From a virus (lineage: Duplodnaviria; Caudoviricetes), in IMG/VR virus record IMGVR_UViG_3300048549_001527: 64,000 nt of DNA, one strand, 5' to 3'. Position 1 is the first letter of the stretch. Each line of letters opens with the position of its first letter. Position numbers and translations under genes: made by a program. Below, in pieces: positions 2,067 to 60,562 of the stretch. Under the pieces are notes generated by a model, which saw only the letters and a program-made list of their open reading frames with translations, made no database searches and was not told the origin of the DNA.

Positions 2067-2570
2067 CTATTTTTTCTTCTCTTTATCACGAGTTAATTTG
2101 TCTTCAAAGTCTTGAACAAATGCATTCATATAATCAGCATTAGTATTTAAATTGAGAACCACTTCGTCGCCAGCGTACGTTCCGCCAGTTGCAATCATAC
2201 TTTGTGAAGATTTAAAACGAATATACATTTGCTTCTTTTCTTTTTGAATGCGCCGTAAAAACGCGTACCAAATGATTTGCGTAAAGTATGCAAATGGATT
2301 CTGCGATTTTTCAGGATTAAAGTTATTGATATATTGTAGGCAATTTTCAATGCCGTCTGATATCATATCTTCTTTGTACGAATAACCACTGAAGTTTGGT
2401 TTTGTCGCGAGTCTTGTTGCGATTTGATAAATGCATTTGCCAATGTAATCAGGTACGCGTGGTACTATTTCACCTTGGTCTTCTGCTTCGACACAATCTT
2501 TTTTGTAATTGATTAACGCTTCTAGCAGATCTTTGTTGTTTACGTAATTCCGTTTGCGAGGTTTCGCCAT
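2067..2570 (-). CDS. gp55: Late-transcription sigma factor
   Basis: NYVNNKDLL..., IATRLATKPNFSGYSYKEDMISDGIENC, NPFAYFTQI typical of gp55; upstream of 47/46 as in T4. Confidence 0.95.
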   Translation of the reverse strand: MAKPRKRNYVNNKDLLEALINYKKDCVEAEDQGEIVPRVPDYIGKCIYQIATRLATKPNFSGYSYKEDMISDGIENCLQYINNFNPEKSQNPFAYFTQIIWYAFLRRIQKEKKQMYIRFKSSQSMIATGGTYAGDEVVLNLNTNADYMNAFVQDFEDKLTRDKEKKK

Positions 2571-12853: not shown

Positions 12854-13143
12854 TGTATAAAACAAATGATATTGTTACAGTACTAACAACCAACGGTGAA
12901 TATGTTGGAAAATTAGTATCACAAGATAACGATAAGGTGGAACTTAAAGATCCTAGGTTTGTGTCTATTAGTGACCAAGGAATGGGATTTGCAAATGGTA
13001 TTTCTATGACAGGCCACGCAAATCCAAAAGAAGTTACTCTCTATAATATTTCATGTATTATGGAAACAAACGAACAAGTACAAGATGCGTATCGTCAAAT
13101 GACAAGTGGACTTGTAACGCCAAAAACAAATCTAATTGTATAG
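12853..13143 (+). CDS. Hypothetical protein, Sm-like beta fold suspected
   Basis: DIVTVLTTNGEYVGKL pattern; coupled ORF. Confidence 0.65.
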   Translation: MYKTNDIVTVLTTNGEYVGKLVSQDNDKVELKDPRFVSISDQGMGFANGISMTGHANPKEVTLYNISCIMETNEQVQDAYRQMTSGLVTPKTNLIV

Positions 13144-13153
13144 GAGAAAGAAA

Positions 13154-13357
13154 ATGGAATTACGAGATCAAATGATAGCAGCTCTAAAAGACCACGCGCG
13201 CGCTCATATCGAAAAACATCGTATGAATGCAGAAATTTATTTGCGGAACCCAGTAGGAGTTGGCGAGCATTCAGAAGTTATGGAAGAAATTGAAAAGCAG
13301 CTTGAAGAAATGGCTAAGTATGAAGACCAATTGGACATGCTAACTAATTATTTCTAA
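13154..13357 (+). CDS. Hypothetical protein
   Basis: NPVGVGEH motif; GGAG RBS; TAATG coupling to next gene. Confidence 0.7.
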   Translation: MELRDQMIAALKDHARAHIEKHRMNAEIYLRNPVGVGEHSEVMEEIEKQLEEMAKYEDQLDMLTNYF

Positions 13358-29403: not shown

Positions 29404-29607
29404 TTGTTTTTGTATATAACACCCTGTGTATCAGTATGCCAAGTTGACGCTTTTACTGGTGTTTGCATTGGTTGTAAAAGAACGCAAAAGCAAATAAATC
29501 GCTGGAACGATTATACAGATGACCAACGTATGGAAGTAATGAAGTCGTTGGGTTACGGAAAACGTATGAGCAAAGAAGAGCGATTACGAAGGTATGATCG
29601 CGGATAA
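29404..29607 (+). CDS. DUF1289-family Cys-rich protein
   Basis: TPCVSVC...CIGCKRT..QI..W pattern. Confidence 0.8.
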   Translation: MFLYITPCVSVCQVDAFTGVCIGCKRTQKQINRWNDYTDDQRMEVMKSLGYGKRMSKEERLRRYDRG

Positions 29608-29640
29608 ATAAAACGTAGCCTAGTCGAATTATAGGAGGAG

Positions 29641-29829
29641 ATGAAAATGGCATTACAAACAGACGGTACAACTCGCATTACAAATGCTGGCGAGCTAGCA
29701 AATATTTCAGGAACGGACTCAGTTTCTGATGCTGCAATCAATACTGCTATTAAAAACCAAAACAATGTTCTAAGAATTTATAACGCTGCGGGTACTGAAG
29801 TTAAAACTTTATTCTGCGCTCAAAACTAA
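29641..29829 (+). CDS. Short virion fibre-associated protein, copy A
   Basis: Paralog of 30840-31025; Thr/Ala/Asn-rich. Confidence 0.65.
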   Translation: MKMALQTDGTTRITNAGELANISGTDSVSDAAINTAIKNQNNVLRIYNAAGTEVKTLFCAQN

Positions 29830-29841
29830 AAGGTTTTTAAC

Positions 29842-30816
29842 ATGACAGTTAGGGCACCGGCGTATTTAGACACGTCCAATACTTTTATCACATATGTATA
29901 CTCTGCTAATTCCGTTCAAATGGAAAGCGTTTATAATTATGCGGCATATCGTTATACTACTAGTACAGCTGTAGAATTATCTGTTGTTTCATCTGGCGGT
30001 AATCTTGGAAATATGACTGACAGAAGAAAGCAAGCGGGTGATGCTGGATCTAATTCTGGAGCAGGACAAACATTTCCAACAGAAGCAGTTACTGATGATA
30101 TTAGCAATGTTGATACTACAGCTGCAACTATTTCCCAAACCGTTAATGTGACTAGTGAGCCAACATACACCGATGAAAACTACGCGTTTCCTGCATATGT
30201 TACCGCATCAGGTAATTTGCAGAATATGACCAAAGCTGACTTTTATGACACATACATATATCCAACAATTACTAGAATGACTGCTGGCGGATCTGGGGCC
30301 GACGCCGATAGAACTGGTACTTATATTATTAGTACCTTAAGTTCCATCACAGGGGCGCAATTGGTTTCAGCTACTCCTGTATTTACGGATACCCGTGCAA
30401 ATGCTGCAAGCTACACGGCTGCAGGTATTGCAGAAAATAACGACCAGCCTGTTGACATCAACGATTATTATTTACATCAAATTGTTCAAGTGCAACTAGC
30501 ACCAGCTGAAATTCCATTTTATATTAACAGTAGTGGTGAAATGAGACAATATAGTACAACTGCCTGGCGAAATATGTTAAGAGATCATTTAAAATATGTA
30601 GCATCTTCTGTTACTCCTTATAGAATACGCTATAATATTAACGGCGGCGGAAACAACTGTGGTACTGGTATGGCTGATACATATTTGTCTGGTACATCGG
30701 CTCAAGGTTACACTACAAGGTTTGACTCGGCCACAACTACATATTATGCTCAGGAATTTCCGAATGGTACACCAGCAACAAGAATAACATATTATTTAAG
30801 AATAACCGCGGATTGA
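29842..30816 (+). CDS. Virion structural / fibre-like protein, copy A
   Basis: Thr/Ser/Gly-rich, ends YYAQEFPNGTP..TYYLRIT; paralog of 31035-31982. Confidence 0.6.
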   Translation: MTVRAPAYLDTSNTFITYVYSANSVQMESVYNYAAYRYTTSTAVELSVVSSGGNLGNMTDRRKQAGDAGSNSGAGQTFPTEAVTDDISNVDTTAATISQTVNVTSEPTYTDENYAFPAYVTASGNLQNMTKADFYDTYIYPTITRMTAGGSGADADRTGTYIISTLSSITGAQLVSATPVFTDTRANAASYTAAGIAENNDQPVDINDYYLHQIVQVQLAPAEIPFYINSSGEMRQYSTTAWRNMLRDHLKYVASSVTPYRIRYNINGGGNNCGTGMADTYLSGTSAQGYTTRFDSATTTYYAQEFPNGTPATRITYYLRITAD

Positions 30817-44356: not shown

Positions 44357-45066
44357 TTTAACACCTCGTAAGCATTGACCTGAAGAGCAAAAAAGAAAGT
44401 ATATACTCTTTCCGCAGTCGAGTAAGCGTGATGCCATTTTGCTGTATCAGCCAGATATAATCTGCCTTTTTCAACGTTTTCTTCTTCTATATATTCTTGT
44501 TTTTCTTCATCCCAAAAACAAAAATGATTATTTTCTGGATCGTTAGTTCCCCATATTCTCAAATTTGCAGGAGGAATAGTTACATCAATGTGTGGTTTGA
44601 AATGTGCCCCCGTGTTCCATTTTAATATAGTACAACGTGCTAACATTCCGTCAAATATTTGCATAGGATCTAAAGATTTCATATTTTTCATTATTTCATT
44701 TGGATATTTGAAATCTGTATCAAACAATGGGTTGTCTGGATGTTCTAAACACCACACATCCATTGGCCAATTAACTGGACTTGGTTTCATATCAATTGGA
44801 TTTTCAAGGTCTGTAAGTCCAAGAGAATACCTTTCTAAGTCAGTATGAGTAGGTCCAAATTGCTCGAATAAATGGTCGTATCTTTTTATCTCTTCTTCAA
44901 ATAAATCACAATCAATTTTTATATCCAAAGGAACAAGATTTTTAGTGTGAATTTCTCTATACTTTTCTTCAGGTAATCTATCTCGAGATAAAGAAAGATT
45001 TCTAAAATGTTCCCATTCCGGCCAGTTTGATAGTTTATCATAATTAGATCCAGGTTCATAATTCAT
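44353..45066 (-). CDS. HxD..H Fe(II) hydroxylase
   Basis: FKPHID, DTAKWHHAYS, YTFF. Confidence 0.7.
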   Translation of the reverse strand: MNYEPGSNYDKLSNWPEWEHFRNLSLSRDRLPEEKYREIHTKNLVPLDIKIDCDLFEEEIKRYDHLFEQFGPTHTDLERYSLGLTDLENPIDMKPSPVNWPMDVWCLEHPDNPLFDTDFKYPNEIMKNMKSLDPMQIFDGMLARCTILKWNTGAHFKPHIDVTIPPANLRIWGTNDPENNHFCFWDEEKQEYIEEENVEKGRLYLADTAKWHHAYSTAERVYTFFFALQVNAYEVLK

Positions 45067-45599
45067 AGTAAAACTCCAACCAAATGAATTCTTTCTGATC
45101 TACTACCATTAAAGGCTGCATGCATTTTTTCTGTATTAGTAATCCACCACTCATTATAAGGAATATGAAATACCTCATTTTCTATTACCATCTTGCAGGA
45201 TTGATCTGTTTTTATTGGGTAATGCAATCTTTTACTAACATCTTTATGCCAACTAGTACAAGCAAAAGGAACACTGCGCATTAGTCTTAATCTTCCTATT
45301 GTGTATCGATCATTTAGAAGATTAAAAACTTCTTCGAAAATTGTTCCTCTAAAAACATCACACAGAACAATAAAATCTTCATCGTATAGCGGATGTTCAA
45401 ATTTTGGTAAACGAACTATGTTTCCTGCTTTATCTTTAACTACTTTATCCCAATTGTAATATAAGCTTTTACATCCTATAGTCCAGTCATGAGATTTTCC
45501 TCCCGGAGCATTCAAGCAAATTTGGTTAAGATTCCAATTTACCAAACCTTTTGATATGAGCTGTCTTAACTCGTCTTCTAAATTTTCAAAAATTGGCAA
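45063..45599 (-). CDS. Aspartyl/asparaginyl beta-hydroxylase-like oxygenase
   Basis: TSWHKD, RLHYPIKT, NTEKMHAAFNG, RIHLV. Confidence 0.8.
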   Translation of the reverse strand: MPIFENLEDELRQLISKGLVNWNLNQICLNAPGGKSHDWTIGCKSLYYNWDKVVKDKAGNIVRLPKFEHPLYDEDFIVLCDVFRGTIFEEVFNLLNDRYTIGRLRLMRSVPFACTSWHKDVSKRLHYPIKTDQSCKMVIENEVFHIPYNEWWITNTEKMHAAFNGSRSERIHLVGVLL

Positions 45600-48300: not shown

Positions 48301-48833
48301 TGTGTAAATCTGCTATTAAAAATCTCGCATCTTTACTTCGCACTGAAGTCTTCGACAAAATTGATTCCTATTGGACTGAGGCTGAAACTTATAGTATTAT
48401 TGAACTCAGAGATTTAGGTAGCGGATATTACGACGAAGATCGTTATCAAGTTAATCATATTGTTGCTCCTAAAAGGAGCGGTAGATCTATTGATGCAAAT
48501 AGTGCCAAAGGCGTATACATTTGGTATCACGGAGATCAGATTATGTATGTTGGTAAAACAGACGCGCCTTCAACGAGTATTCACAAACGGCAATATGCCC
48601 ACTCGCGTAGCTTTACAACACCACACGAAAGACACGAATCTTCAGGACGTAAATATCGCGAGTTTTTAAAAGAAAATAATTTACATTCTATGGATATTGT
48701 GATAAAATATATTAATACTGATAAGTTTGATATTGAAGGTATGGCAGAACTCATTGAAACTGCAACTATTAATAATTATCAGCCATTACTTAATCGTGAA
48801 ATTAAAGGGAGAGGCCAGAGAGAATGCTATTAA
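48300..48833 (+). CDS. GIY-YIG-like nuclease
   Basis: KGVYIW..IMYVGKT, later H/R, E..I...QPLLN. Confidence 0.7.
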   Translation: MCKSAIKNLASLLRTEVFDKIDSYWTEAETYSIIELRDLGSGYYDEDRYQVNHIVAPKRSGRSIDANSAKGVYIWYHGDQIMYVGKTDAPSTSIHKRQYAHSRSFTTPHERHESSGRKYREFLKENNLHSMDIVIKYINTDKFDIEGMAELIETATINNYQPLLNREIKGRGQRECY

Positions 48834-49378
48834 TCATTGAAGGTATGGATCGCTGTGGTAAATCCACATTGGTACAAAACCTACGTAAAAAATATTTTAA
48901 AAATCCAAACATAATGGCTCACCATTCATCTTCTCCTCCTGACTTTGAAGATCCTAATGGTTGGGAAAAAGAACATTATGAGTCTTTGTTCATTGCATCT
49001 AAACGACTTGTAAATCAAATGAATTATGATATTATCTTTGACCGTTTCCATCTCGGTGCAATCGTCTATGGCGAAAAGTATCGTGCTGCAGACGGTAAAG
49101 ACATTTATGAATTAGATCGAAGGTTTCTTAGCGGATATAAAAATGCCGCTCTAATTTTGTTGACTGATACTACTGACGGTATTATGTCTCGTGATGATGG
49201 CGATAGCCTTGAACAAAGTAAAGAAGATTTCTTATATAGTCGTAACGCGTTTTTGACTGCGTTCAACGAGTCAAGCTGTAAACATAAACTAAGCATAAAT
49301 ATAACAAAGAACGGTGGAGTGGGTAACACATATGATACCGTTGTAAATTTTTTAGATGGAGTTCGTAATGAGAATTGA
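48824..49378 (+). CDS. Thymidylate-kinase-like dNMP kinase
   Basis: IIEGMDRCGKST P-loop, FDRFHLG. Confidence 0.85.
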   Translation: MLLIIEGMDRCGKSTLVQNLRKKYFKNPNIMAHHSSSPPDFEDPNGWEKEHYESLFIASKRLVNQMNYDIIFDRFHLGAIVYGEKYRAADGKDIYELDRRFLSGYKNAALILLTDTTDGIMSRDDGDSLEQSKEDFLYSRNAFLTAFNESSCKHKLSINITKNGGVGNTYDTVVNFLDGVRNEN

Positions 49379-50066
49379 TAGTGTACATGACATTCGTGAG
49401 TTCTTTAAAGGCGAGCTAGCCGACGAAGCATTTACAATTGATAAGACAGGCCAACGGACTATTGAATTAATTGGCGCAAACTTTCTTGCAACAGAACCTG
49501 CAATCTTTGGTGAACCAAGTCAAGCTTATATTAACTCTGAGCTTGCTTGGTATGAGTCGCAATCAACAAACATTAATGATATCTATGGACCATCCAAACC
49601 TGCTCCTGCCGCATGGCAATATTCAGCAGATCCACACGGTAATATTAATTCCAATTATGGTCATTTAGTATTCTCTAAAAAATATCATAACCAATTCCAA
49701 AATGCTTTTGATGAACTATGGAGTAACCCTGATAGCCGTCGTGCTCAAATGATTTACAATCGTCCATCTATTTGGGTTGAGTTTGACGAAGGTGGTAAGT
49801 CTGACTTTATTTGTACTAATGCACAAACGTTTTATATCCGCGATGGCATTCTGATGATGGTGTCACAAATGCGTTCTAACGACGCAATCTTTGGCTATAA
49901 AAACGACTATGCTTGGGCTCAATATCTTATGGATAAGTTTGTTGCTCAATGGAACCAACAATGTAAACTTCCTGGCAATAAGCACTTTACTATTGATAAA
50001 GGTATGCTTACATGGCAAGCTATGAATTTGCACGTGTATGAGCGCCACTTTGACTTGGTTGTATAA
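49368..50066 (+). CDS. gp42: dCMP hydroxymethylase (thymidylate synthase fold)
   Basis: Colinear with T4 gp42: DKTG..TIE.IGA.F, EL.WY, INSNYG, NPDSRR, DF.CTN, MRSND, NDYAW (Asp implies dCMP specificity), LHVY.RHF. Confidence 0.9.
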   Translation: MRIDSVHDIREFFKGELADEAFTIDKTGQRTIELIGANFLATEPAIFGEPSQAYINSELAWYESQSTNINDIYGPSKPAPAAWQYSADPHGNINSNYGHLVFSKKYHNQFQNAFDELWSNPDSRRAQMIYNRPSIWVEFDEGGKSDFICTNAQTFYIRDGILMMVSQMRSNDAIFGYKNDYAWAQYLMDKFVAQWNQQCKLPGNKHFTIDKGMLTWQAMNLHVYERHFDLVV

Positions 50067-50071
50067 ATAAC

Positions 50072-50323
50072 ATGAGTAAACTAATTCTTATTTCTGATAT
50101 TATTGAGACGCGGCTTCGTAAAGAAAAAGAAATTGAATATTATCAGAAGCAACTTGAAAAAATACAAAACAAAATGTTCTTCCTCAAAAAGGATCTTGAT
50201 ATCACAACATTAATTATTGACATGATTGAAAAAGAAAAGGTTGTTGATTTTAAAGAACAGATGGAGGACAAAACTATTATGTTAGGAAACAATAATGTGG
50301 ACAAAACCAAGACTGAAAACTAG
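50072..50323 (+). CDS. Hypothetical coiled-coil protein
   Basis: 83 aa; TATAAATA at 50062-50069 just upstream. Confidence 0.7.
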   Translation: MSKLILISDIIETRLRKEKEIEYYQKQLEKIQNKMFFLKKDLDITTLIIDMIEKEKVVDFKEQMEDKTIMLGNNNVDKTKTEN

Positions 50324-50576
50324 GCTAAAAGAAGGTAAATTTCTTGTAACTTGGAATAAAAGTTCTAAGACTAATGCAAACACACCTAGCACAACAAGGT
50401 CGTGTGAAGTTACATTAAAGCCAGAATTAATTCCAGAAGATAAACGCCATCGTTTACCTAATCCCCCGGCAACTGCAGATTACAGAGTTGGTGTATGGGA
50501 TTGCGAATTAAATGTATGGCATGTCGATGGAATACCGGCAACAAGAGTTATATCTGTTGTAGAAGTAACCGATTAA
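50295..50576 (+). CDS. Hypothetical protein, WYL_2/Sm-like suspected
   Basis: LK.G...VT..K..R....TL.PELIP..VWD pattern. Confidence 0.55.
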   Translation: MWTKPRLKTRLKEGKFLVTWNKSSKTNANTPSTTRSCEVTLKPELIPEDKRHRLPNPPATADYRVGVWDCELNVWHVDGIPATRVISVVEVTD

Positions 50577-50594
50577 AAACTGAAAGATTATATT

Positions 50595-51104
50595 ATGGAA
50601 GAACGTGAGCCTTACGAGGCATACATGCGTAGGCGCAATTTAGAAGAAGACACCCGTGAATTAAAATGGGATAACCGCTTTATGGAATTGGCTAAAACAA
50701 TTTCAGGATGGAGCAAAGATCCTTCGAGTAAAATTGGTGCAGTGGCAGTAAACGATGAACGCCGCATACTTGCGACTGGATATAACGGTTTCCCAAAAGG
50801 CATTGAAGATAGTCAAGAAAGACTAAACGATAGAGAACAAAAATATCCGCTTATTGTTCACGCTGAAACAAACGCGTTGATGAATGCGCTTTATGCTGGT
50901 GTTTCTTTAAAAAATGCAACAATGTACGTTCATGGATTACCCGTGTGTCCTGACTGTACTAAGCTTATTATTCAAGCAGGCATTCGTAGAATTGTTATTA
51001 ACAAATTCGTAATGAATACTCCAGAAAAATGGGTTGAGCTATGGAATAGCAAATCAGGACCTATGTTTAAAGAGGCAGGCGTATTGGTAACACAGCTTGG
51101 CTAA
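50595..51104 (+). CDS. cd: dCMP deaminase
   Basis: SKDPSSKIGA, TGYNGFP, HAETNA, PVCPDC. Confidence 0.93.
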   Translation: MEEREPYEAYMRRRNLEEDTRELKWDNRFMELAKTISGWSKDPSSKIGAVAVNDERRILATGYNGFPKGIEDSQERLNDREQKYPLIVHAETNALMNALYAGVSLKNATMYVHGLPVCPDCTKLIIQAGIRRIVINKFVMNTPEKWVELWNSKSGPMFKEAGVLVTQLG

Positions 51105-51759
51105 TAATTTAACTGATATATATGTTGGCGTTAAGAAAAACGATCCTAATCGTAAAAAGAATGACTTTTATCCAACTCCGCCTCTTGCCACATATGTATT
51201 GTGCAAGTATGGTAATCCTCCACAAAATTTAATTGAACCTTGTGCCGGTCGAGGTAACATAACAAGAGAATTAGTTCGTAACGGTCATAATGTTATATCG
51301 TATGACTTAAATGATTATAGTGATAAATTAGTACCTATTAAAACTACAGTTGATGCTATGGAATTACAAAAGCTTGATGGCTTTGATGGTGTAGTTACCA
51401 ATCCCCCATATCATAAAGACTTGCCGCGGAAGATGGCGGAAAAATGGATAAAAGAATATGATTACGTCGCAATGTTTTTAAGACTAACTTTCTTTGAAGG
51501 AAAAAAACGAAATAAACTATTTACAAACTACCCGCCTAGTGATATAATATTTTTATCAGATCGAGTTAGATTTGATTCTAATATTGTAGAACCAATTGAA
51601 AAGAAAGATCAGATCGGCGGCATGATTGCATATGCTTGGTTCATTTGGAACAAAAAGTATCCGCAAGGATTAACTAAAATGCGTTGGGCAATGCTTGAAG
51701 ATGAATATGACGAGTGGAGATTAAATTATGATAAATGTAGTAATACCGGCAGCAGGTGA
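51097..51759 (+). CDS. Amino (N6-adenine / N4-cytosine) DNA methyltransferase
   Basis: DFYPTP, EPCAGRG (motif I), TNPPY (motif IV). Confidence 0.85.
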   Translation: MANNLTDIYVGVKKNDPNRKKNDFYPTPPLATYVLCKYGNPPQNLIEPCAGRGNITRELVRNGHNVISYDLNDYSDKLVPIKTTVDAMELQKLDGFDGVVTNPPYHKDLPRKMAEKWIKEYDYVAMFLRLTFFEGKKRNKLFTNYPPSDIIFLSDRVRFDSNIVEPIEKKDQIGGMIAYAWFIWNKKYPQGLTKMRWAMLEDEYDEWRLNYDKCSNTGSR

Positions 51760-53203
51760 GGCAACAAGATTAAAGCCATTAACTGCAAATTGCTCGAAGG
51801 CAATGATACGCGTACACGGTAAACCTACTATTGAATATATTATTGAGTCAGTTCATAATAACGGCGCTGTAGTTAATCAAATCATTATAGTTGATGGCAA
51901 GCATGACGATATTCGTGAGTGGGTTGCAAAATCAAAATATAATAATATTAAATGTGTAAAACAAGGATCTCTTAACGGTCCTCGTGATGCTATTGATGTT
52001 GGTATTAACAGTTTAGAAAATCCTACGTATCCTTTAGTTGTATGGCTAGGGGATGCAATTATTCTTGAAGAAGAACTACCTTTAGGCACTGACTTTTTAT
52101 TAACCAAAGAAGTTGAAGATCACTTTGCTTGGTGTATGTGGGATGGTAAAAAATACTTTAATAAACCAAAAGAAAATATTGAACAAGCTTCAGCTCTAGT
52201 AGGTCTATACAGTTTCAGTAGAGGATACGAAGCATATCACGCTTTTCACTACTCAAAAGGTTATGACATATCAGATGCTTTGGAGTTATATGAAGAACAC
52301 GCTTCATTTAATAATATCAACACGGAAAAATGGTATGACATCGGCGACATATCTTCATATCACAAAACTTGCGCAACTCTACTAACATTCAAAGCTCGTG
52401 AATTTAATTCGTTTGAATACAATTCAGATCTTAATATGATTACTAAATGGCCGCAGTCTGATAATAAATTTGCCGTTAAGACTATTATGAATGAAAAGAA
52501 TTGGTATGAAAATCTGAGCCCACTGCAAAATATGTTTGTTCCTAAAATTTTGCCAGATCCATATGCACTAACAATGTCATATGAGTCTGGTATTTTGCTA
52601 TCTGATTTGTTTATGCATGAGGATCTAAGCCCGTCTACTATTGAATACTTAATTGAAAAGGTATTCATTATAATGAACAAGTACTTCCATAAAAAAGCAA
52701 CACTTGAATTTGTCGCAGACTTTTGGGATAACGCTGAAAAAATGTGGATTGATAAAACCAAAAATCGTGGCGCTGATGATTATTATCTTGATGTTGCAGA
52801 GCGCTGTCTTAGTAGAGCTCGCCCAGTTTCAGGTATGCACGGTGATTTGCATTTCGGTAATATTCTTTATAATCCATATAACGATAGCATTACCTTGTTA
52901 GATCCGCGTGGCTCTTATGGAGATCATGTTGGTTGCGGCGGAGATTGGATGTATGATATGTGCAAATTGTCACACGACCTTTTCCATGGATATAATGAAT
53001 TAGTTTCCGGGCATAAATACCCTCAGACAGTACGTGAAACCTTTGGCCGATTGGTACTTAAATATTACCCTGACGCATATGATGATATTATTGACGGCGG
53101 CGCTTTGTTAATTGCAACTTGTTTGCCATTACATTACGACTGTGAAGAACGCCAACAAAGAATGAGAGATTATATTAATGAATACGCAAACCTTAGTAGT
53201 TGA
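51728..53203 (+). CDS. Sugar nucleotidyltransferase fused to APH/choline-kinase-like domain
   Basis: VIPAAGEATRLKPLT..SKAM, WLGD; HGDLHFGNIL and LLDPRG kinase motifs. Confidence 0.85.
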   Translation: MINVVIPAAGEATRLKPLTANCSKAMIRVHGKPTIEYIIESVHNNGAVVNQIIIVDGKHDDIREWVAKSKYNNIKCVKQGSLNGPRDAIDVGINSLENPTYPLVVWLGDAIILEEELPLGTDFLLTKEVEDHFAWCMWDGKKYFNKPKENIEQASALVGLYSFSRGYEAYHAFHYSKGYDISDALELYEEHASFNNINTEKWYDIGDISSYHKTCATLLTFKAREFNSFEYNSDLNMITKWPQSDNKFAVKTIMNEKNWYENLSPLQNMFVPKILPDPYALTMSYESGILLSDLFMHEDLSPSTIEYLIEKVFIIMNKYFHKKATLEFVADFWDNAEKMWIDKTKNRGADDYYLDVAERCLSRARPVSGMHGDLHFGNILYNPYNDSITLLDPRGSYGDHVGCGGDWMYDMCKLSHDLFHGYNELVSGHKYPQTVRETFGRLVLKYYPDAYDDIIDGGALLIATCLPLHYDCEERQQRMRDYINEYANLSS

Positions 53204-53537
53204 TATTGATGACACGATTTGTACTCCGTTGCATGGCAGATCTGAATCTGAAGTTAAGTACGGAATGGCAAATCCTAATCGCCCAATGATTGCAAGTTTA
53301 CAAAAAGCAAAGAAAAACGGATATCGCATTGTACTTCATACCGCGCGACGAATGCTTACTCACGATGGTGACATAAATAAAATCATTAATGACGTCGGAA
53401 AAATAACCACAGACTGGTTGGATAAGTACGAAGTACCTTATGATGAAATTGTGTGGGGTAAACCACACGGTGTTTATTACATTGATGATAAAGCAATGAC
53501 TCCTGAAGAGTTCGTTAAGATGATGGAATGGAAGTGA
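53178..53537 (+). CDS. HAD-family phosphatase (capsule-biosynthesis type)
   Basis: DIDDTI, HTAR, GKP, YIDDKA. Confidence 0.88.
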   Translation: MNTQTLVVDIDDTICTPLHGRSESEVKYGMANPNRPMIASLQKAKKNGYRIVLHTARRMLTHDGDINKIINDVGKITTDWLDKYEVPYDEIVWGKPHGVYYIDDKAMTPEEFVKMMEWK

Positions 53538-53539
53538 TT

Positions 53540-54784
53540 ATGAAAAACATTGGTTTCGCAAAGATTGGTAAATCTATTAAATTTAAAACTAACAAGTACT
53601 CTCCCATTGGTGGAGATAATGAAGCGTCTTGCACTATACGAGCAATGGCAAACAACAACCCAGACAAAACGTTTTACCTAATTGGTCGTTCTGACTTTGG
53701 TGCATTGTCTGATACTGAACGTTTAGATTTGTTCCCATATGATAATGTAATTGACTGTTGGCACGGCGTTCCTTTGGCAATGTCAGAAACATATTATAAT
53801 CATATTATTAATTATTTTAAAGACATTGAGCTTGACTTTTCTGTTATGATGATTGGGCAAATTAGTAATGTTACAATCCCAGATAAAATTTGGAAAGTAC
53901 GTGAAAGTCAACAAGACGGCAAACCTGCTGCAACTCTTGATATGACTAAGTGGTACACAACTCCTATTACCAAATGGCTAAACGAAAGTAAGCCACGATG
54001 GATAGAAATTGTTAACGATCCACGATATGTTATCAAACAACCACGTGATGTATTTCATATGCCTTTCCGTTCTCTTGGACAATACGATTATGATTATGAA
54101 ACATTTTCTATTACTGATTACGAAAACCAAGAAAGATTAGTACGGGTTGTTCATTCTGAATATGCAGGAATGGAAACTGCTTTTTGCGGCGATTATGAAT
54201 ACACTGAACAAGTAAACACGGATCGTAACACAGACTTTATGGTTGTACTTAATGAAGGCAAACCGTCACGCTATAACTTACTTAAAAGCTGGGTACTTGA
54301 TAAATTTGATAACGTTGATATATACGGTAAGTGGCTCGACGAACGTGCTGAAAGCGACGAAAGGTTTAAAGGATCATTACATATCAATGAGATCCAAGAT
54401 AAACTACAGGATGTTAAGTTTACATTTATCATTCCAATTAAAGAAGGTTGGACCACATCAAAATATATTGAAATGATTCACGCTGGTGTTATTCCTTTCC
54501 TTCATCCAACTTATGACGACCAAGGTCATTTGCCTATTCCTAACTTTCTTAGACCTAAAACGCCTGAAGAATTTTATACAAATATGCAAAGACTAATTGA
54601 CAACCCAACAGAATACGAAACGGTTCTCAATGGATTGCGTAAAGCAATTCTTAAACCAGAATATTATGATGGTAGCTTTATTAATGACAATATTATGAAA
54701 GCTGCTGACGAAAATTATAAAAGACCTGACATGTTGCAGTTTACAAAGAAAAAAGCTGCGACACTTGAAGACTTTTTTGCATAG
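53540..54784 (+). CDS. GT-B glycosyltransferase resembling T4 beta-glucosyltransferase
   Basis: Colinear resemblance to Bgt (N-terminal K.IKFKT..E, NDPR, R..L..W..VDIYG, T.KYIE); C-terminal KKAATLEDFFA. Confidence 0.7.
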   Translation: MKNIGFAKIGKSIKFKTNKYSPIGGDNEASCTIRAMANNNPDKTFYLIGRSDFGALSDTERLDLFPYDNVIDCWHGVPLAMSETYYNHIINYFKDIELDFSVMMIGQISNVTIPDKIWKVRESQQDGKPAATLDMTKWYTTPITKWLNESKPRWIEIVNDPRYVIKQPRDVFHMPFRSLGQYDYDYETFSITDYENQERLVRVVHSEYAGMETAFCGDYEYTEQVNTDRNTDFMVVLNEGKPSRYNLLKSWVLDKFDNVDIYGKWLDERAESDERFKGSLHINEIQDKLQDVKFTFIIPIKEGWTTSKYIEMIHAGVIPFLHPTYDDQGHLPIPNFLRPKTPEEFYTNMQRLIDNPTEYETVLNGLRKAILKPEYYDGSFINDNIMKAADENYKRPDMLQFTKKKAATLEDFFA

Positions 54785-54794
54785 AGGATATAAA

Positions 54795-56006
54795 ATGAGC
54801 GAAATTACATGGGCCCCAATTATTCCACTAATCGGTGGACAAATGCTAGGAGCAGAAAAAGCTTTTGGAAAACCACCTGAAGCTATCTATTCATACGCGG
54901 ACTTTGAAGGAAACGATAGTCATTATGTTAACTATCAGCAAAACGTCAAAGGGCGTGACGTACAATATAAAATGATACCTGAAAGTTCAAGTCGACATAT
55001 AAGTGTTATTTCAGGCACACCACCTTGTGCGGCATTATCACAACTTAACACTGGTAAAACCGAAGCGGCAAAAGGTGCAAAATGCGAAAAGAACGAATGG
55101 ATGTACGAAGTCTTTAAAGAAGGCATTAACCGATTTTCAGCTAAAGCTATTGTTGTTGAAAACGCTCCTGCACTGTTTACTAAAAAAGGTAAAGAAGTAG
55201 CTGATAATTTGTTTGACATTTGCTCAAAAGCAGGGTATAGTTTAACTCTATATAAAACATCTACAAAATATCATGGTATCCCACAAGCTAGAGATCGTTG
55301 TTTTGCCATTGGTTGGAATTCAGAAACCGCTCCTATTATGAATTGGTACAAACGGCCTCGTAAAAAGTTTCACGAATATCTTTCGGATTTAACAGACGAT
55401 ATTCAACAAATGGATATTTTGTGTAACAAAAAACTTGATGAAGAACCTTACTATCAATACATCAAGTCACTTACAAACGAAGATCCTCGTAAGGTAATTA
55501 TGGAAAGCGGACAGATTACGGCATTTAACTATATTAATAAAAGTGGTAAATTGCCTGCTTGTAATAAATGGATGCATGATACAAATAACGAACGCGGTAT
55601 CAAAGTATCAGACCATGCTGTTAAAAAGTTTGCAATGGGTAAAGGTATTTGGGATAGCTCAACACACGTCTTTGGAGATTGTATGAATGCAGTTATCGGT
55701 CGTAACCTTGCAGATACAATTCATCCAAAGTTTGATCGTTCTTTAACTATTCGTGAAGCGTTGTATCTTATGGGTTTCCCTCATGACTTTGAGCTTGTTG
55801 GCGGATTACCTAAAATGAATCATATTGCTCAAAACGTTCCTGTTCCAACATCAAGAGATATTCATACTGAAATCGGTAAGTTTATTCGTGGCGAGTTAAC
55901 GATGTCAGATACTAATTACCATCGTCAAGATAACCATAACGAACGGATGTGGTCTGATCCGGGTGGGAAAAACAACCAAGCAACACTTGAGGAGTTCATG
56001 GCTTGA
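54795..56006 (+). CDS. C5 cytosine methyltransferase-fold protein with atypical motif I
   Basis: GTPPC (IV), VENAP (VI), GIPQARDR (VIII), RSLTIREA..LMGFP (IX), QNVP (X); motif I reads IPLIGG. Confidence 0.8.
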   Translation: MSEITWAPIIPLIGGQMLGAEKAFGKPPEAIYSYADFEGNDSHYVNYQQNVKGRDVQYKMIPESSSRHISVISGTPPCAALSQLNTGKTEAAKGAKCEKNEWMYEVFKEGINRFSAKAIVVENAPALFTKKGKEVADNLFDICSKAGYSLTLYKTSTKYHGIPQARDRCFAIGWNSETAPIMNWYKRPRKKFHEYLSDLTDDIQQMDILCNKKLDEEPYYQYIKSLTNEDPRKVIMESGQITAFNYINKSGKLPACNKWMHDTNNERGIKVSDHAVKKFAMGKGIWDSSTHVFGDCMNAVIGRNLADTIHPKFDRSLTIREALYLMGFPHDFELVGGLPKMNHIAQNVPVPTSRDIHTEIGKFIRGELTMSDTNYHRQDNHNERMWSDPGGKNNQATLEEFMA

Positions 56007-56638
56007 AACACGACTTTATTATAGATTTTGAGACATTCGGCAAGGATGCTCAAAAGTGCGCAGTGATTGACTGTTCGGTGATGGTATTCAGTTGGGATAA
56101 AATGATTTCAGCTGATCCATATACTCTTGCAGATATATCAAAAACAAAACGATTTAAACTATCCGTGGTAGATCAAGTTAAAAATTATGGATGGGAAATT
56201 GATAAAGGAACAGTTACATGGTGGGAATCCTTAGGACCTGAAGTTCGTAGGAACATTAAACCACTTCCAACTGATTTAACTGTTGCTGATTTTACCAAGC
56301 AATTTCATGACTTTTTAATTGACTCGCCAAAGATTAGTAAATGGTGGTCTAGGTCAAATACATTTGACCCGATTATTCTTGGTCGTTTATTTCAATCACA
56401 AGATAAACTATTACATATGGAAGAGTACTTAAAGTATTGGGCAGTCCGCGATACACGTACTTATATTGATGCAAAGTTTGATTTTAAGCAAAAGAATGGG
56501 TTTATTCCATTTGCTGACGAACAGCGTTGGGAACAGATGTTTAAAGCTCACGACAGCTCGTGGGATATTTTAGCAGATGTATTACGCATGCAAGCAATTC
56601 GTAGGGCTGAGGAAGATTTAGAACAGGTGACAACATGA
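56003..56638 (+). CDS. dexA: Exonuclease A (DEDD)
   Basis: DFIIDFET.G, AVID, TVTWW, FDP.IL, RDTRT, AHDS.WD as in T4 DexA. Confidence 0.85.
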   Translation: MKHDFIIDFETFGKDAQKCAVIDCSVMVFSWDKMISADPYTLADISKTKRFKLSVVDQVKNYGWEIDKGTVTWWESLGPEVRRNIKPLPTDLTVADFTKQFHDFLIDSPKISKWWSRSNTFDPIILGRLFQSQDKLLHMEEYLKYWAVRDTRTYIDAKFDFKQKNGFIPFADEQRWEQMFKAHDSSWDILADVLRMQAIRRAEEDLEQVTT

Positions 56639-57528
56639 ATTTAAACGTAACTATTGAAGACTTACAACAATATAAAATCTTTGTTGGTACACCAATGTAT
56701 GGTGGACAATGCGCAGGCTTATTCACAAAGGCTTGTAACGATCTTGCTATGTTGTGTACGGCTAATAAAATTCCAATTAAGTTTTATTATCTTTTTAATG
56801 AAAGTTTGGTACAAAGAGCTCGTAACTATATTGTTGATGAATTCCTACGCTCAGACTCAACGCATTTAATGTTTATTGATTCCGACATTGGTTTCAATCC
56901 AAGAGATGTTATTTCACTTATGGCAATATATCATTCAGATCCTGATAAGTATGACATTTTGACCGGACCTTATCCTAAAAAGACTATTGCGTGGGAAAAA
57001 GTTCATATGGCCGCAAAGGCAGGTAAAGGCGATGAAAATCCTTTTGAGCTTAACGAATTTACTGGAGACTTTGTATTTAATCCAGTAGGTGGAGTTACTA
57101 GTTTTAAAATGGATGCACCACTTGAAGTTGGTGAAGCAGGTACAGGATTTATGTTAATACCTCGTAAAGTATTTGAAGATTACCGAGCTGCATACCCTGA
57201 ATTGTCATATAAGCCAGACCACGCAAGAACTGAAAACTTTGACGGAGAACGTGATATTACAGCATTCTTTGATTGTATAATTGATCCAAAAACACGGCGG
57301 TATTTGTCTGAGGATTACTTCTTTTGTCAAAAGGCAAGAGCAATACAAAAAAGAGTTTGGATGTGTCCATGGATGAGAATGACTCATGTTGGTTCTTATA
57401 TGTTTAACGGTAATATGTCTGCTCTTGGATCTTTAGGAGCGTCTCCAACCGCAAATAAACAAAGCAATTCTAAGAACTATAAAAAACCATTGACAAAAAC
57501 CAAAAAACGTAATAAAATAAACAAATGA
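56635..57528 (+). CDS. GT-A-like hypothetical protein
   Basis: VGTPMYGG, ESLVQRARN, HLMFIDSDIGF, YLSEDYFFC. Confidence 0.7.
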   Translation: MNLNVTIEDLQQYKIFVGTPMYGGQCAGLFTKACNDLAMLCTANKIPIKFYYLFNESLVQRARNYIVDEFLRSDSTHLMFIDSDIGFNPRDVISLMAIYHSDPDKYDILTGPYPKKTIAWEKVHMAAKAGKGDENPFELNEFTGDFVFNPVGGVTSFKMDAPLEVGEAGTGFMLIPRKVFEDYRAAYPELSYKPDHARTENFDGERDITAFFDCIIDPKTRRYLSEDYFFCQKARAIQKRVWMCPWMRMTHVGSYMFNGNMSALGSLGASPTANKQSNSKNYKKPLTKTKKRNKINK

Positions 57529-57550: not shown

Positions 57551-58216
57551 ATGAAATTTTCTGAACGCACTCTTACTATTCTTAAGAGTTTCTCTACTAT
57601 CAACAAATCAATCCAAATGAAGCAAGGGAATACCCTTCGTACCATTACACCTGAAAAAACACTGATTGCATCCGCAACAATCCCAGATCAGTTTCCATCA
57701 GAAGCATGTATTTACGATTTGTCAAGATTTTTATCAATTTTGTCACTTCATACTGCGCCAGACGTAGAGTTTCATGATAAATACTTTGTAATCACAGAAG
57801 GTAAACAGCGTACTCGTTACGCCTTTGCCGACGTTTCCATGATACACGCAGCGCCTGAAAAAACCATTGAATTGCCGTCGGCTGATGTGGTTGTTGATGT
57901 ATCTTGGAATGATTTGCAATCTGTTCAAAAAGCGGCAGGTGTTCTTCAGTTTAATGAAGTTGCATTTGTTGGCCAGGATGGAAAGTGTTACTTAAAGGCC
58001 ATTGATAGTTCGTCTGCGGCAGCGGATGACTACGGTGTAGAAATTGGCGATACTGCCGATGAGTTTAAAATTATTATTAAAACTGATAATTTGAAGCTCT
58101 TACCTCAAGATTACAGAGTTACGCTGTCAAGTAAAGGTATCTCTGAATTTAAAGGTGAAGACGTCACGTATTTCGTGGCTATTGATACAAAGTCGACTTA
58201 TAAGAAAGGATCCTAA
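57551..58216 (+). CDS. gp45: Sliding clamp
   Basis: MKFS..TL.ILKSFSTIN.SI, IYDL..FL, NLKLLP.DY.V, Y.VA. Confidence 0.95.
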   Translation: MKFSERTLTILKSFSTINKSIQMKQGNTLRTITPEKTLIASATIPDQFPSEACIYDLSRFLSILSLHTAPDVEFHDKYFVITEGKQRTRYAFADVSMIHAAPEKTIELPSADVVVDVSWNDLQSVQKAAGVLQFNEVAFVGQDGKCYLKAIDSSSAAADDYGVEIGDTADEFKIIIKTDNLKLLPQDYRVTLSSKGISEFKGEDVTYFVAIDTKSTYKKGS

Positions 58217-58218
58217 TT

Positions 58219-58476
58219 ATGGATGAAAATCAACAACCTGAAAATCCAGGTGGAATTAACCTACAAGATATGGCAACAGTTGTTCAAATCATTGACATTG
58301 CCTCGCGTCGTGGTGCTTTTGAAGGCCGTGAACTGCAAGGTGTTGGCATGCTTCGGAATAAAATTGAAGCGTTCTTACGTGCACAACAGCAACAGCCTGA
58401 AGGTATGATGCCGCCACCTGACGCAGCAGCAGATGTCCCTCAAGATGCACCACTTGCAGATAAAGTGACAAACTAA
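58219..58476 (+). CDS. Hypothetical protein
   Basis: IIDIASRRGAF.G.E..VG.LR motif; between gp45 and gp44. Confidence 0.75.
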   Translation: MDENQQPENPGGINLQDMATVVQIIDIASRRGAFEGRELQGVGMLRNKIEAFLRAQQQQPEGMMPPPDAAADVPQDAPLADKVTN

Positions 58477-58544: not shown

Positions 58545-59498
58545 ATGTCTATTGATGCTAAACAAAATGAAGTGCTCTGGGTTGAGCGCTATCGGCCGCA
58601 ACTTATCGCGGATACTATACTTCCTGAAAAAACTAAATCTATGTTCACAAAGTTTGTTACGGATAACAGCGTACCAAACTTATTGCTAACTGGCGGCCCA
58701 GGCGTTGGCAAAACTACAATTGCGAAAGCAATGCTCGAAGAACTCGGCTGTGATTATATTGTAAAGAACGGCTCTTTGAATGTTAACATCGATACTCTTC
58801 GTTATGATATATCAACATATGCCTCTGCTGTATCGCTACAAGGTGGTCGCAAATATGTAATCTTTGACGAAGCTGATTACCTTAATGCTGCAAATGTTCA
58901 ACCAGCTTTGCGTAATTTTATTGAAGAATATTCTTCAAACTGTGGCTTTATTTTTACTTGTAACTTTAAGAATAGAATTATTCAGCCATTACGTTCTCGG
59001 TTGTCTGAAGTTGACTTTACAATTGAAACATCTGACCGTCCTAAACTTGCAATGCAGTTTATGAAACGAGTTACGCAAATCCTCGAACAAGAACAAGTAG
59101 AATATGACCAATCTGTTGTTGCAAAGGTTATTCAAAAACACTTCCCTGATTTCCGTCGTGTACTAACTGAACTGCAATCCTACTCAGCATCAGGTAAAAT
59201 TGACGAAGGTATCTTTATCAATTTGAAGCAAGAGTCCATGGATGAATTGTTTCGTTTGTTAAAAGCTAAAGACTTTACTAATATGCGTAAATGGGTTGCA
59301 AAGAATAGCGATCAAGATATGAATGAAATGTTCCGTCGCATTTATGATATGGGATCTGATAAAGTTTTAATGAAATCATTACCTGGGTTTGTTGTAACTC
59401 TGGCAGATTATATGTATAAGGCAAACTTTGTTGCAGATCTTGAAGTCAATATGGTTGCATTCTTAACTGAAGTAATGATTGAAGCCGAATATAAATGA
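58545..59498 (+). CDS. gp44: Clamp loader large subunit
   Basis: LWVERYRP, GGPGVGKTT, FDEAD, SRC-like PLRSR, FPDFR. Confidence 0.96.
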   Translation: MSIDAKQNEVLWVERYRPQLIADTILPEKTKSMFTKFVTDNSVPNLLLTGGPGVGKTTIAKAMLEELGCDYIVKNGSLNVNIDTLRYDISTYASAVSLQGGRKYVIFDEADYLNAANVQPALRNFIEEYSSNCGFIFTCNFKNRIIQPLRSRLSEVDFTIETSDRPKLAMQFMKRVTQILEQEQVEYDQSVVAKVIQKHFPDFRRVLTELQSYSASGKIDEGIFINLKQESMDELFRLLKAKDFTNMRKWVAKNSDQDMNEMFRRIYDMGSDKVLMKSLPGFVVTLADYMYKANFVADLEVNMVAFLTEVMIEAEYK

Positions 59499-59701
59499 GT
59501 GAATGGATAAAAAAACTAATAGGTGTCCACACTTGTTTCAATTGTGAAAAATATATTGATAAGAAAGATATATACAATGTAGATCTTGATACGCTTGATG
59601 GAGTACTACACCTAAAGCTATGCCCAACTTGTGCTAAAGATTTTGATGATATGATGAAAGAATTGGAGGAAGTAATTGCCGAAAGAGATAACACCATTTG
59701 A
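59495..59701 (+). CDS. Hypothetical Zn-ribbon protein
   Basis: CFNC..CPTC. Confidence 0.6.
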   Translation: MSEWIKKLIGVHTCFNCEKYIDKKDIYNVDLDTLDGVLHLKLCPTCAKDFDDMMKELEEVIAERDNTI

Positions 59702-60092
59702 TTTTATGAATGCAGTATCCTTTACTAAAGAGGATCTGATTGGTAACCACGAAAACCCAGACCAAGCTGAAAAGCTATATGTTCCTTACATGGTCAATCG
59801 TGGCTTTGCAAACTTTGAAGATACCATACTCCATGCAAACGAATTGAATCAACGTGCTCATTTATTTGACCGTGCTCAATTTGACTATTATCGTGGAGCA
59901 TTACGTAAACGTAAACGTTTTTCAAAATGGCCAAAAGCTGATAAAAACATAGACTTAGACGCTATTCAGGAAGTGTATCAATGTAATAGAACCATAGCAA
60001 AGCTTTACCTTAAGGCGTTAACAGTTGAAGATTTAAAGACTATCCATACGAAGCTTGAGACAGGCGGTGTTGGCACCAAATCAAAGAAATGA
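59676..60092 (+). CDS. gp62: Clamp loader small subunit
   Basis: PFDF..A, YVPYMVNRG, NE.N, KRKRFSKW, ETGG; TTG start with GGAGG. Confidence 0.9.
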   Translation: MPKEITPFDFMNAVSFTKEDLIGNHENPDQAEKLYVPYMVNRGFANFEDTILHANELNQRAHLFDRAQFDYYRGALRKRKRFSKWPKADKNIDLDAIQEVYQCNRTIAKLYLKALTVEDLKTIHTKLETGGVGTKSKK

Positions 60093-60154: not shown

Positions 60155-60562
60155 ATGCAATCTGAAGAAAACATTTTTAAAGGTGTTGGTATTGAGGTAT
60201 CCCTCCCAACACAGGATAGTTTTTTAAAAATTAAAGAAACTCTCACGCGTATTGGTATTTCATCCCGCAAAGAAAAGAAGCTGTATCAGTCTTGCCATAT
60301 ATTACACAAGCAAGGTCGATATTCAATTTTACACTTTAAAGAACTATTTATTTTAGATGGTAAAAAAGATACATTTGCTGATGAAGACAAAGCAAGGCGT
60401 AACACAATTGTTAACCTACTTGAAGAATGGGGATTAGTTAATGTTATTGACACAGATAACGCACAAGACCCAATTGCCCCATTAAACCAAATTAAAATAT
60501 TATCTCATAAAGAAAAAGGTAATTGGATATTAGAGGCAAAATATAACATAGGAAAAAAATAA
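60155..60562 (+). CDS. regA: Translational repressor RegA
   Basis: FLKIKETLTRIGI, LYQSCHILHKQGRY.I.HFKELF.LDG. Confidence 0.96.
   Translation: MQSEENIFKGVGIEVSLPTQDSFLKIKETLTRIGISSRKEKKLYQSCHILHKQGRYSILHFKELFILDGKKDTFADEDKARRNTIVNLLEEWGLVNVIDTDNAQDPIAPLNQIKILSHKEKGNWILEAKYNIGKK

Follow-up and report, generated by a model that had tools for sequence, protein, structure and literature searches.

The gp45 sliding clamp of T4-type phages is a trimer, and clamps remain on DNA after the polymerase departs. On the T4 record the DNA polymerase gp43 ends ...ASLDFLFG, gp33 ends ...NTLDFLL and gp55 ends ...SLDFLYEAND, and these three tails are interchangeable clamp-binding epitopes (PMC2988020); the RB69 polymerase peptide occupies a hydrophobic crevice of gp45 (PMC2705854). 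Among enzymes that modify DNA, the C5-cytosine methyltransferase DNMT1 is brought to new DNA by a clamp-binding PIP box on PCNA (PMC9690074), and binding of the T4 alpha-glucosyltransferase to gp45 was reported by Sommer et al. (2004, BBRC 323:809, as cited in PMC6024577). Here we describe two adjacent genes of IMGVR_UViG_3300048549_001527, a 64,000-nucleotide stretch of DNA (the whole of which is called the window below) from an uncultured marine T4-like phage, which encode a glycosyltransferase (GT) and a C5-methyltransferase-fold protein (MT) that end in nearly the same peptide. We read both tails as peptides that contact the clamp in the manner of T4 gp43, gp33 and gp55, with a probability of roughly 0.8, and DNA modification in this phage is probably physically hooked to newly replicated DNA. 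The features on which this reading turns are as follows.

53540-54784, plus strand: GT, 414 amino acids (alternative ATG at 53528)
54761-54781, plus strand: GT tail TLEDFFA, putative gp45-binding peptide (stop 54782-54784)
54795-56006, plus strand: MT, 403 amino acids (PF00145, E 2e-24; phrog_116)
55899-55982, plus strand: MT linker, residues ~369-396, polar and variable, leading from the catalytic domain to the tail
55983-56003, plus strand: MT tail TLEEFMA, putative gp45-binding peptide (stop 56004-56006)
57551-58216, plus strand: gp45 sliding clamp, proposed docking partner (PF09116, 9e-18; phrog_223, 1.6e-71)
2067-2570, minus strand: gp55 late sigma factor homologue (40% identity to T4 gp55)

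The GT ends ...FTKKKAATLEDFFA (full form also given as ...KKKAATLEDFFA) and the MT ends ...GGKNNQATLEEFMA (full form also given as ...KNNQATLEEFMA). An earlier note on this DNA had claimed that two adjacent, unrelated proteins share a near-identical terminal peptide, and both the ends of the open reading frames (ORFs) and the Pfam assignments bear it out, since the MT carries PF00145 and the GT matches no Pfam or PHROG family. The gp45 gene that the same note placed 1.5 kb downstream indeed starts at 57551 (PF09116; phrog_223, E 2e-71), and its quotations of the T4 gp43 and gp33 tails agree with the T4 record. Only 2 of the 365 ORFs of at least 40 amino acids in the window, the GT and the MT, carry such a C-terminal motif; under a strict definition, [STNG][LI]x[DESG]F[FMLI]x(0-1) followed by the stop, 0.08 matches would be expected by chance among these 365 ORFs, and a loose regular expression found no further tails in the window. 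The codons of the two tails differ (GAA GAC TTT TTT GCA in the GT, GAG GAG TTC ATG GCT in the MT), which rules out an origin as a repeated piece of DNA. As a separate observation, a 73-amino-acid ORF at 13136-13357 (phrog_1811) ends LDMLTNYF.

Does the polymerase of this phage carry the same peptide? By synteny with G001, a complete relative of 218 kb, gene 43 is placed just left of position 1 of the window. Contigs that share a 31-mer taken from the first 150 bases of the window were fetched by exact match. The four contigs obtained are 92-96% identical in nucleotide sequence to the left end of the window. Two of them (L115 and L117) extend as far as gene 43, which lies ~2.2 kb to the left, and in these gp43 ends ...SAEKINTLEDFFA. 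Its last seven residues are TLEDFFA, identical to the GT tail of the window, so that the comparison with gp43 proposed in the earlier note comes out as a match. A further seven contigs (eight by another count) each hold the genes for gp43, GT and MT; every one of the encoded proteins ends [STNG][LI]xxF[FMI], and the gp43 C-terminus takes the form [ST][LI][ED][DS]FF[SM]. The individual tails are:

G001 and G009: gp43 ASLESFFM; GT TTLADFFV; MT ATLEGFFV
G003 and G005: gp43 NTIEDFFS; GT ATLEDFFG; MT PNLEEFFG (longer form VNTIEDFFS, AATLEDFFG, TPNLEEFFG)
G006: gp43 DTLESFFS; GT ATLEEFFA; MT PTLEEFFAA
G007: gp43 DTLDDFFS; GT EGLESFFG; MT STLEEFI
G013: gp43 NTLDDFFS; GT ATLEDFFA; MT PNLDEFFA

G001 has 1261 ORFs, of which 0.28 would be expected to match the strict motif; those that do are gp43, the GT and the MT, which are the sole real genes, and one spurious ORF of 51 amino acids. 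The arrangement is like that of the T4/RB69 gp43, gp33 and gp55 epitopes (RB69 clamp with polymerase peptide, 1B8H) in that a terminal or near-terminal peptide with a hydrophobic-acidic [ST]L[DE]..F core stands behind a variable linker and is found on the cognate polymerase, in a phage whose clamp is a full-length gp45 homologue, and it is unlike them in that the carriers are DNA-modifying enzymes. BLAST found no gp33 homologue in G001. The same genome also encodes, at 29497-30282 (L103:10497-11279, minus strand), a 261-amino-acid protein (phrog_26930) that ends ...EKTLKDLFGV and has no homologue in the window; it is possibly a fourth clamp client.

The conservation of the tails among homologues, which the earlier note had named as a check on its proposal, was found throughout. 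In IMG/VR the GT and MT genes are adjacent in ~90 contigs, and a terminal L-x-x-[FW]-h core is kept in 42/42 distinct GT sequences (48-98% identity), as is a terminal [LV]-x-x-F-h core in 51/51 distinct MT sequences (56-99% identity). By column, L409 is conserved at 100% and E410, F412 and F413 at 96% each in the GT alignment (A3), and L398 at 97%, E400 at 90% and F401 at 100% in the MT alignment (A2). Residues directly upstream of the tails have an entropy of ~2 bits (1.6-2.7 bits in the GT linker) and vary in length. The conserved tail residues are encoded by several synonymous codons across loci, which indicates selection on the peptide. Distant MT homologues mostly align only up to residue ~385, and many nevertheless end in a hydrophobic peptide; at 30-50% identity, 24/134 full-length representatives of the MT family have a T4-like tail and 32/134 end in hF (...K-x-x-LF), the background being 6/308 ORFs.

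The group of MT homologues ending in LF led to a second lineage, represented by long contigs (G016-G020), in which a different peptide recurs. There the C-terminal half of a split family B DNA polymerase (PolB) ends ...IVRTQLF, a homologue of the window GT (29% identity, E 6e-48) ends ...QAKSLF, and a GT25 enzyme, an enzyme like the T4 alpha-glucosyltransferase (AGT; PF11440) and one or two C5-methyltransferases all end x-LF. The tails of these modification enzymes match that of their own PolB, and the enzyme tail therefore follows the polymerase tail across lineages. An ECF-type sigma factor (PF08281, PF04542) ends ...NQNKLF or ...ETNELF (L137:3598-4203, L134:2177-2773), which suggests clamp-activated transcription outside the gp55 family. 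The ...QAKSLF and ...RTQLF endings resemble the bacterial beta-clamp motif QL[SD]LF; this lineage, in contrast, has a gp44-type clamp loader and a two-domain gp45/PCNA-like clamp of its own, and for this reason the partner of the x-LF tails is probably the phage clamp. That clamp is a 247-amino-acid ORF adjoining the split PolB (L190:6611-7351, minus strand; G019 44608-45351), whose predicted structure matches gp45/PCNA clamps with template modelling (TM) scores of 0.77-0.83 in an ESM-Atlas structure search. It belongs to no Pfam or PHROG family and was missed by PF09116, the A1 profile, phrog_223 and a local hmmsearch, being recognised by the structure search only; judged by its predicted fold, it codes for a phage sliding clamp that has diverged very far.

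The window gp45 is a full-length homologue of the T4-type clamp, its profile aligning over residues 1-217 with T4 gp45 (1CZD, 2e-33) and RB69 gp45 (1B77/1B8H, 3e-33), and the docking was modelled, as the earlier note had suggested, with the gp45 trimer and a C-terminal segment of the MT (residues 360-403). The prediction scored 0.53 (0.50-0.57 over the runs), whereas none of three controls, with an unrelated protein in place of gp45, exceeded 0.00; at least 39% of contacts were common to the runs, and the partner's predicted local distance difference test score (pLDDT) was at least 42 (42-44). The mark used for such predictions is reached by 58/80 solved complexes and 2/110 mismatched pairs, but at 0.60 or less by only 7 of the 80 and by both of the mismatches that pass. 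A solved complex of like kind exists (1B8H), so that the predictor may have passed here by memorisation. The modelling lends the docking weak support. One alternative is that polymerase, GT and MT use their common tail to dock on some other partner, such as a replisome protein, a compartment or a scaffold, which would accommodate the weakness of the prediction, the dependence of gp45 binding on homology with the T4 and RB69 gp43 tails, and a gp55 homologue that does not end in the motif. However, the C-terminal tail of T4 and RB69 gp43 is an established gp45 epitope, the clamp here is a full-length homologue of T4 and RB69 gp45, the second-lineage sigma factor bears its lineage's tail just as T4 gp55 does, and the unrelated controls scored 0.00; a partner other than gp45 is therefore quite unlikely.

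Several observations weigh against a role of the tails in clamp binding. The motif here, T-L-E-D-F-F-A, has one extra acidic residue between L and F compared with T4 SLDFLF (register L-E-D-F-F versus L-D-F-L-F), a spacing that does match the lineage's own gp43, and that polymerase tail is itself taken from relatives, the gp43 of this phage lying outside the window. The docking prediction is weak. The gp55 homologue of the window ends ...VQDFEDKLTRDKEKKK without a terminal clamp motif, and so not every expected clamp client carries the motif here. As to T4 itself, the idea of coupling glycosylation of hydroxymethylcytosine to the replication clamp is the same, whereas the T4 alpha-glucosyltransferase (...EQFDIITK) and beta-glucosyltransferase (BGT; ...FKKAIDL) have no clamp tail on the T4 record, and the enzymes described here bear the polymerase's own tail. 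Moreover, in a 2026 study the T4 glucosyltransferases showed no interaction with gp45, and the reported binding of the alpha-glucosyltransferase was not reproduced in vitro or in vivo (PMC13216743); the interaction that the earlier note had treated as established is therefore contested. Finally, Pseudoalteromonas phage vB_Psh_XG4 (PP712099; L183 3019-6580) was the one phage in culture in which close relatives of both enzymes turned up (MT 50% identity), and neither has the tail there, with a PolB that ends ...SLDDLFM and a gp44 loader present. At least one phage can therefore do without tethering, and the tail is best regarded as an optional add-on. In cyanophage S-TIM5 the MT homologue (30% identity) ends ...KTMEPIWGV, and the annotated polymerase fragment, ending ...SYEIQS, is uninformative. 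As an observation on gp55 itself, an internal element [IV][EQ]DFE[DN]KL stands ~8-14 residues before the end of the homologue (FIEDFENKL in G001), and this might be a displaced clamp epitope.

The absence of the tail from XG4 also bears on whether the tails have any function in common. Short hydrophobic-acidic C-termini are easily evolved, and the last residues of the GT model form a short helix (pLDDT 74-84), so the peptide could be a fold element, or the 3' end of gene 43 could have been copied by recombination. Against this stand a core kept in all 93 of 93 distinct homologues, the synonymous drift of its codons and the variable linker before it, tail-less XG4 homologues which indicate that the fold does not need the tail, and a second lineage with a different tail that is again matched to its polymerase. 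A likeness of the tails with no shared function is in our view very improbable.

How would clamp binding serve the two enzymes? Under the reading that the tails are clamp-interaction peptides, each enzyme would have three parts: a catalytic domain, which is folded, a linker of ~10-27 residues that varies and is probably disordered, and at the very end the peptide [ST]-L-[ED]-x-F-[FM]-x. This peptide would most likely lodge in the hydrophobic pocket of one gp45 subunit, in the way known for the RB69 polymerase tail. The three subunits of gp45, and the persistence of clamps after the polymerase has left, would allow the GT and MT to travel on loaded clamps close behind the fork, where the DNA already holds the modified cytosine derived from gp42. 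Modification could in this way be finished processively before host nucleases meet under-modified DNA. It is also conceivable that the tails bind gp45 and act there as competitors or regulators that displace the polymerase or late-transcription factors, or that time the switch from replication to packaging: all clients share one type of pocket, polymerase exchange on gp45 is known (PMC12746103), and at least three enzymes share the tail in the second lineage. However, the tail is specific to duplex-DNA enzymes of unrelated folds (GT-B, GT25, AGT-like, C5-methyltransferase), which fits recruitment to substrate, and with three sites on gp45 occupancy need not exclude the polymerase. We regard a mainly regulatory role as unlikely and retain recruitment of the modifying enzymes to gp45. 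The closest parallel outside phages is DNMT1 on PCNA, likewise a C5-methyltransferase with a clamp-binding peptide, of which the present case would be a viral counterpart; the DNMT1 PIP box, by contrast, lies internally in the N-terminal part and contacts PCNA, whereas the peptide here is C-terminal and would bind a phage gp45 clamp.

For twenty years the case for a physical coupling of phage DNA modification to replication stood on a single T4 pull-down, a result that failed to be reproduced in 2026. The tailed enzymes, which occur in hundreds of ocean phage contigs, make the question directly testable, with two lineages and two peptides. The clamp-client peptide is known, and DNA-modifying enzymes as its carriers are a new class of clients; our literature search found no paper on polymerase-type clamp tails on phage DNA-modifying enzymes. 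We propose tentatively, at a little less than even odds, that large phages in general organise post-replicative DNA hypermodification by tethering the enzymes to their own sliding clamp. Enzymes of unrelated folds (BGT-like, AGT-like, GT25, C5-methyltransferase-like) would have repeatedly acquired the tail used by their lineage's polymerase and late sigma factor (...LEDFF, ...x-LF), and the MT-fold enzyme, acting on DNA in which cytosine C5 is already substituted, would do chemistry beyond plain methylation. If true, the full set of clamp clients encoded by any such phage could be recognised from its polymerase tail. A search for ORFs that share the polymerase tail also offers a simple sequence rule for clamp clients in uncultured phages. 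The pattern may also explain how protective hypermodification is completed ahead of host nucleases on nascent DNA.

What chemistry do the two enzymes perform? The AlphaFold2 model of the GT (pLDDT 86, predicted TM score 0.87) shows a GT-B fold with two Rossmann domains, and its top six Protein Data Bank (PDB) matches are T4 BGT entries (Foldseek E 9e-9 to 2e-7, TM 0.49-0.64), the best being 1nzd/1j39 (E 9e-9, TM 0.51-0.64). The likeness is structural only, the BLASTP comparison with T4 BGT giving E 3.3 and no Pfam family being matched; by its model, the GT is a DNA glycosyltransferase most like T4 beta-glucosyltransferase. The catalytic motifs IV, VI, VIII, IX and X of the MT are invariant in 29 sequences (A2), namely TPPC78, E122-N-A (ENAPAL), Q164-x-R-x-R (PQxRxR), R320-E (TIRE) and Q346-N-x-P; motif I reads P-L-I-G-G-Q where FxGxG is usual, the first Gly being replaced, and PDB profile matches include DNMT1 and M.HaeIII among others. 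The phage to which this MT belongs already has cytosine C5 occupied through its gp42-like enzyme. The window's kinase, gp42-like thymidylate synthase homologue, nucleotidyltransferase-kinase fusion and HAD phosphatase (48824-53537) parallel the 5-hydroxycytosine (5hoC) arabinosylation cluster of RB69 and DLP3 (PMC13326640), and the RB69 gp42 homologue makes 5-hydroxy-dCMP, not 5-hydroxymethyl-dCMP (PMC13326640); the window shows no gene for an arabinose-5-phosphate isomerase. From its sequence, the gp42-like enzyme would supply the C5-modified dCMP for the GT to act on, either 5-hydroxymethyl- or 5-hydroxy-dCMP. Since the gp42-like enzyme and the sugar-activation genes parallel the RB69/DLP3 cluster, the GT most likely transfers a phage-activated sugar to C5-oxygenated cytosine in DNA, and the modified base may be glycosylated 5hoC rather than glycosylated 5-hydroxymethylcytosine.

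These genes lie in a single co-oriented run on the plus strand at 48.8-60.6 kb. A megablast search of the region against cultured phages gave a sole match of 95 bp. Besides the GT, MT and gp45 genes, the run contains:

48824-49378, plus strand: thymidylate-kinase-like gene
49356-50066, plus strand: gp42-like thymidylate-synthase homologue (44% identity to T4 gp42, E 2e-67; equivalents of Cys148 and Asp179 retained)
50595-51104, plus strand: dCMP deaminase
51097-51759, plus strand: amino-methyltransferase
51728-53203, plus strand: nucleotidyltransferase-kinase fusion, sugar activation (PF00483 and a kinase-like C-terminal half)
53178-53537, plus strand: HAD phosphatase, sugar activation (PF25109/phrog_1238)
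56003-56638, plus strand: exonuclease
56635-57528, plus strand: second, GT-A-like transferase (phrog_1574, E 3e-58)
58219-58476, plus strand: 85-amino-acid ORF rich in Gln, Pro and acidic residues, between gp45 and gp44 (phrog_13789)
58545-59498, plus strand: gp44 clamp-loader large subunit (phrog_168, 9e-106; PF21328)
59676-60092, plus strand: gp62 clamp-loader small subunit (PF16790, 2.5e-16; phrog_225, 1e-34)
60155-60562, plus strand: RegA

The GT-A-like transferase, which lies directly upstream of gp45, does not carry the clamp motif and ends in a lysine-rich sequence, ...KKPLTKTKKRNKINK, which may be an alternative way of holding DNA.

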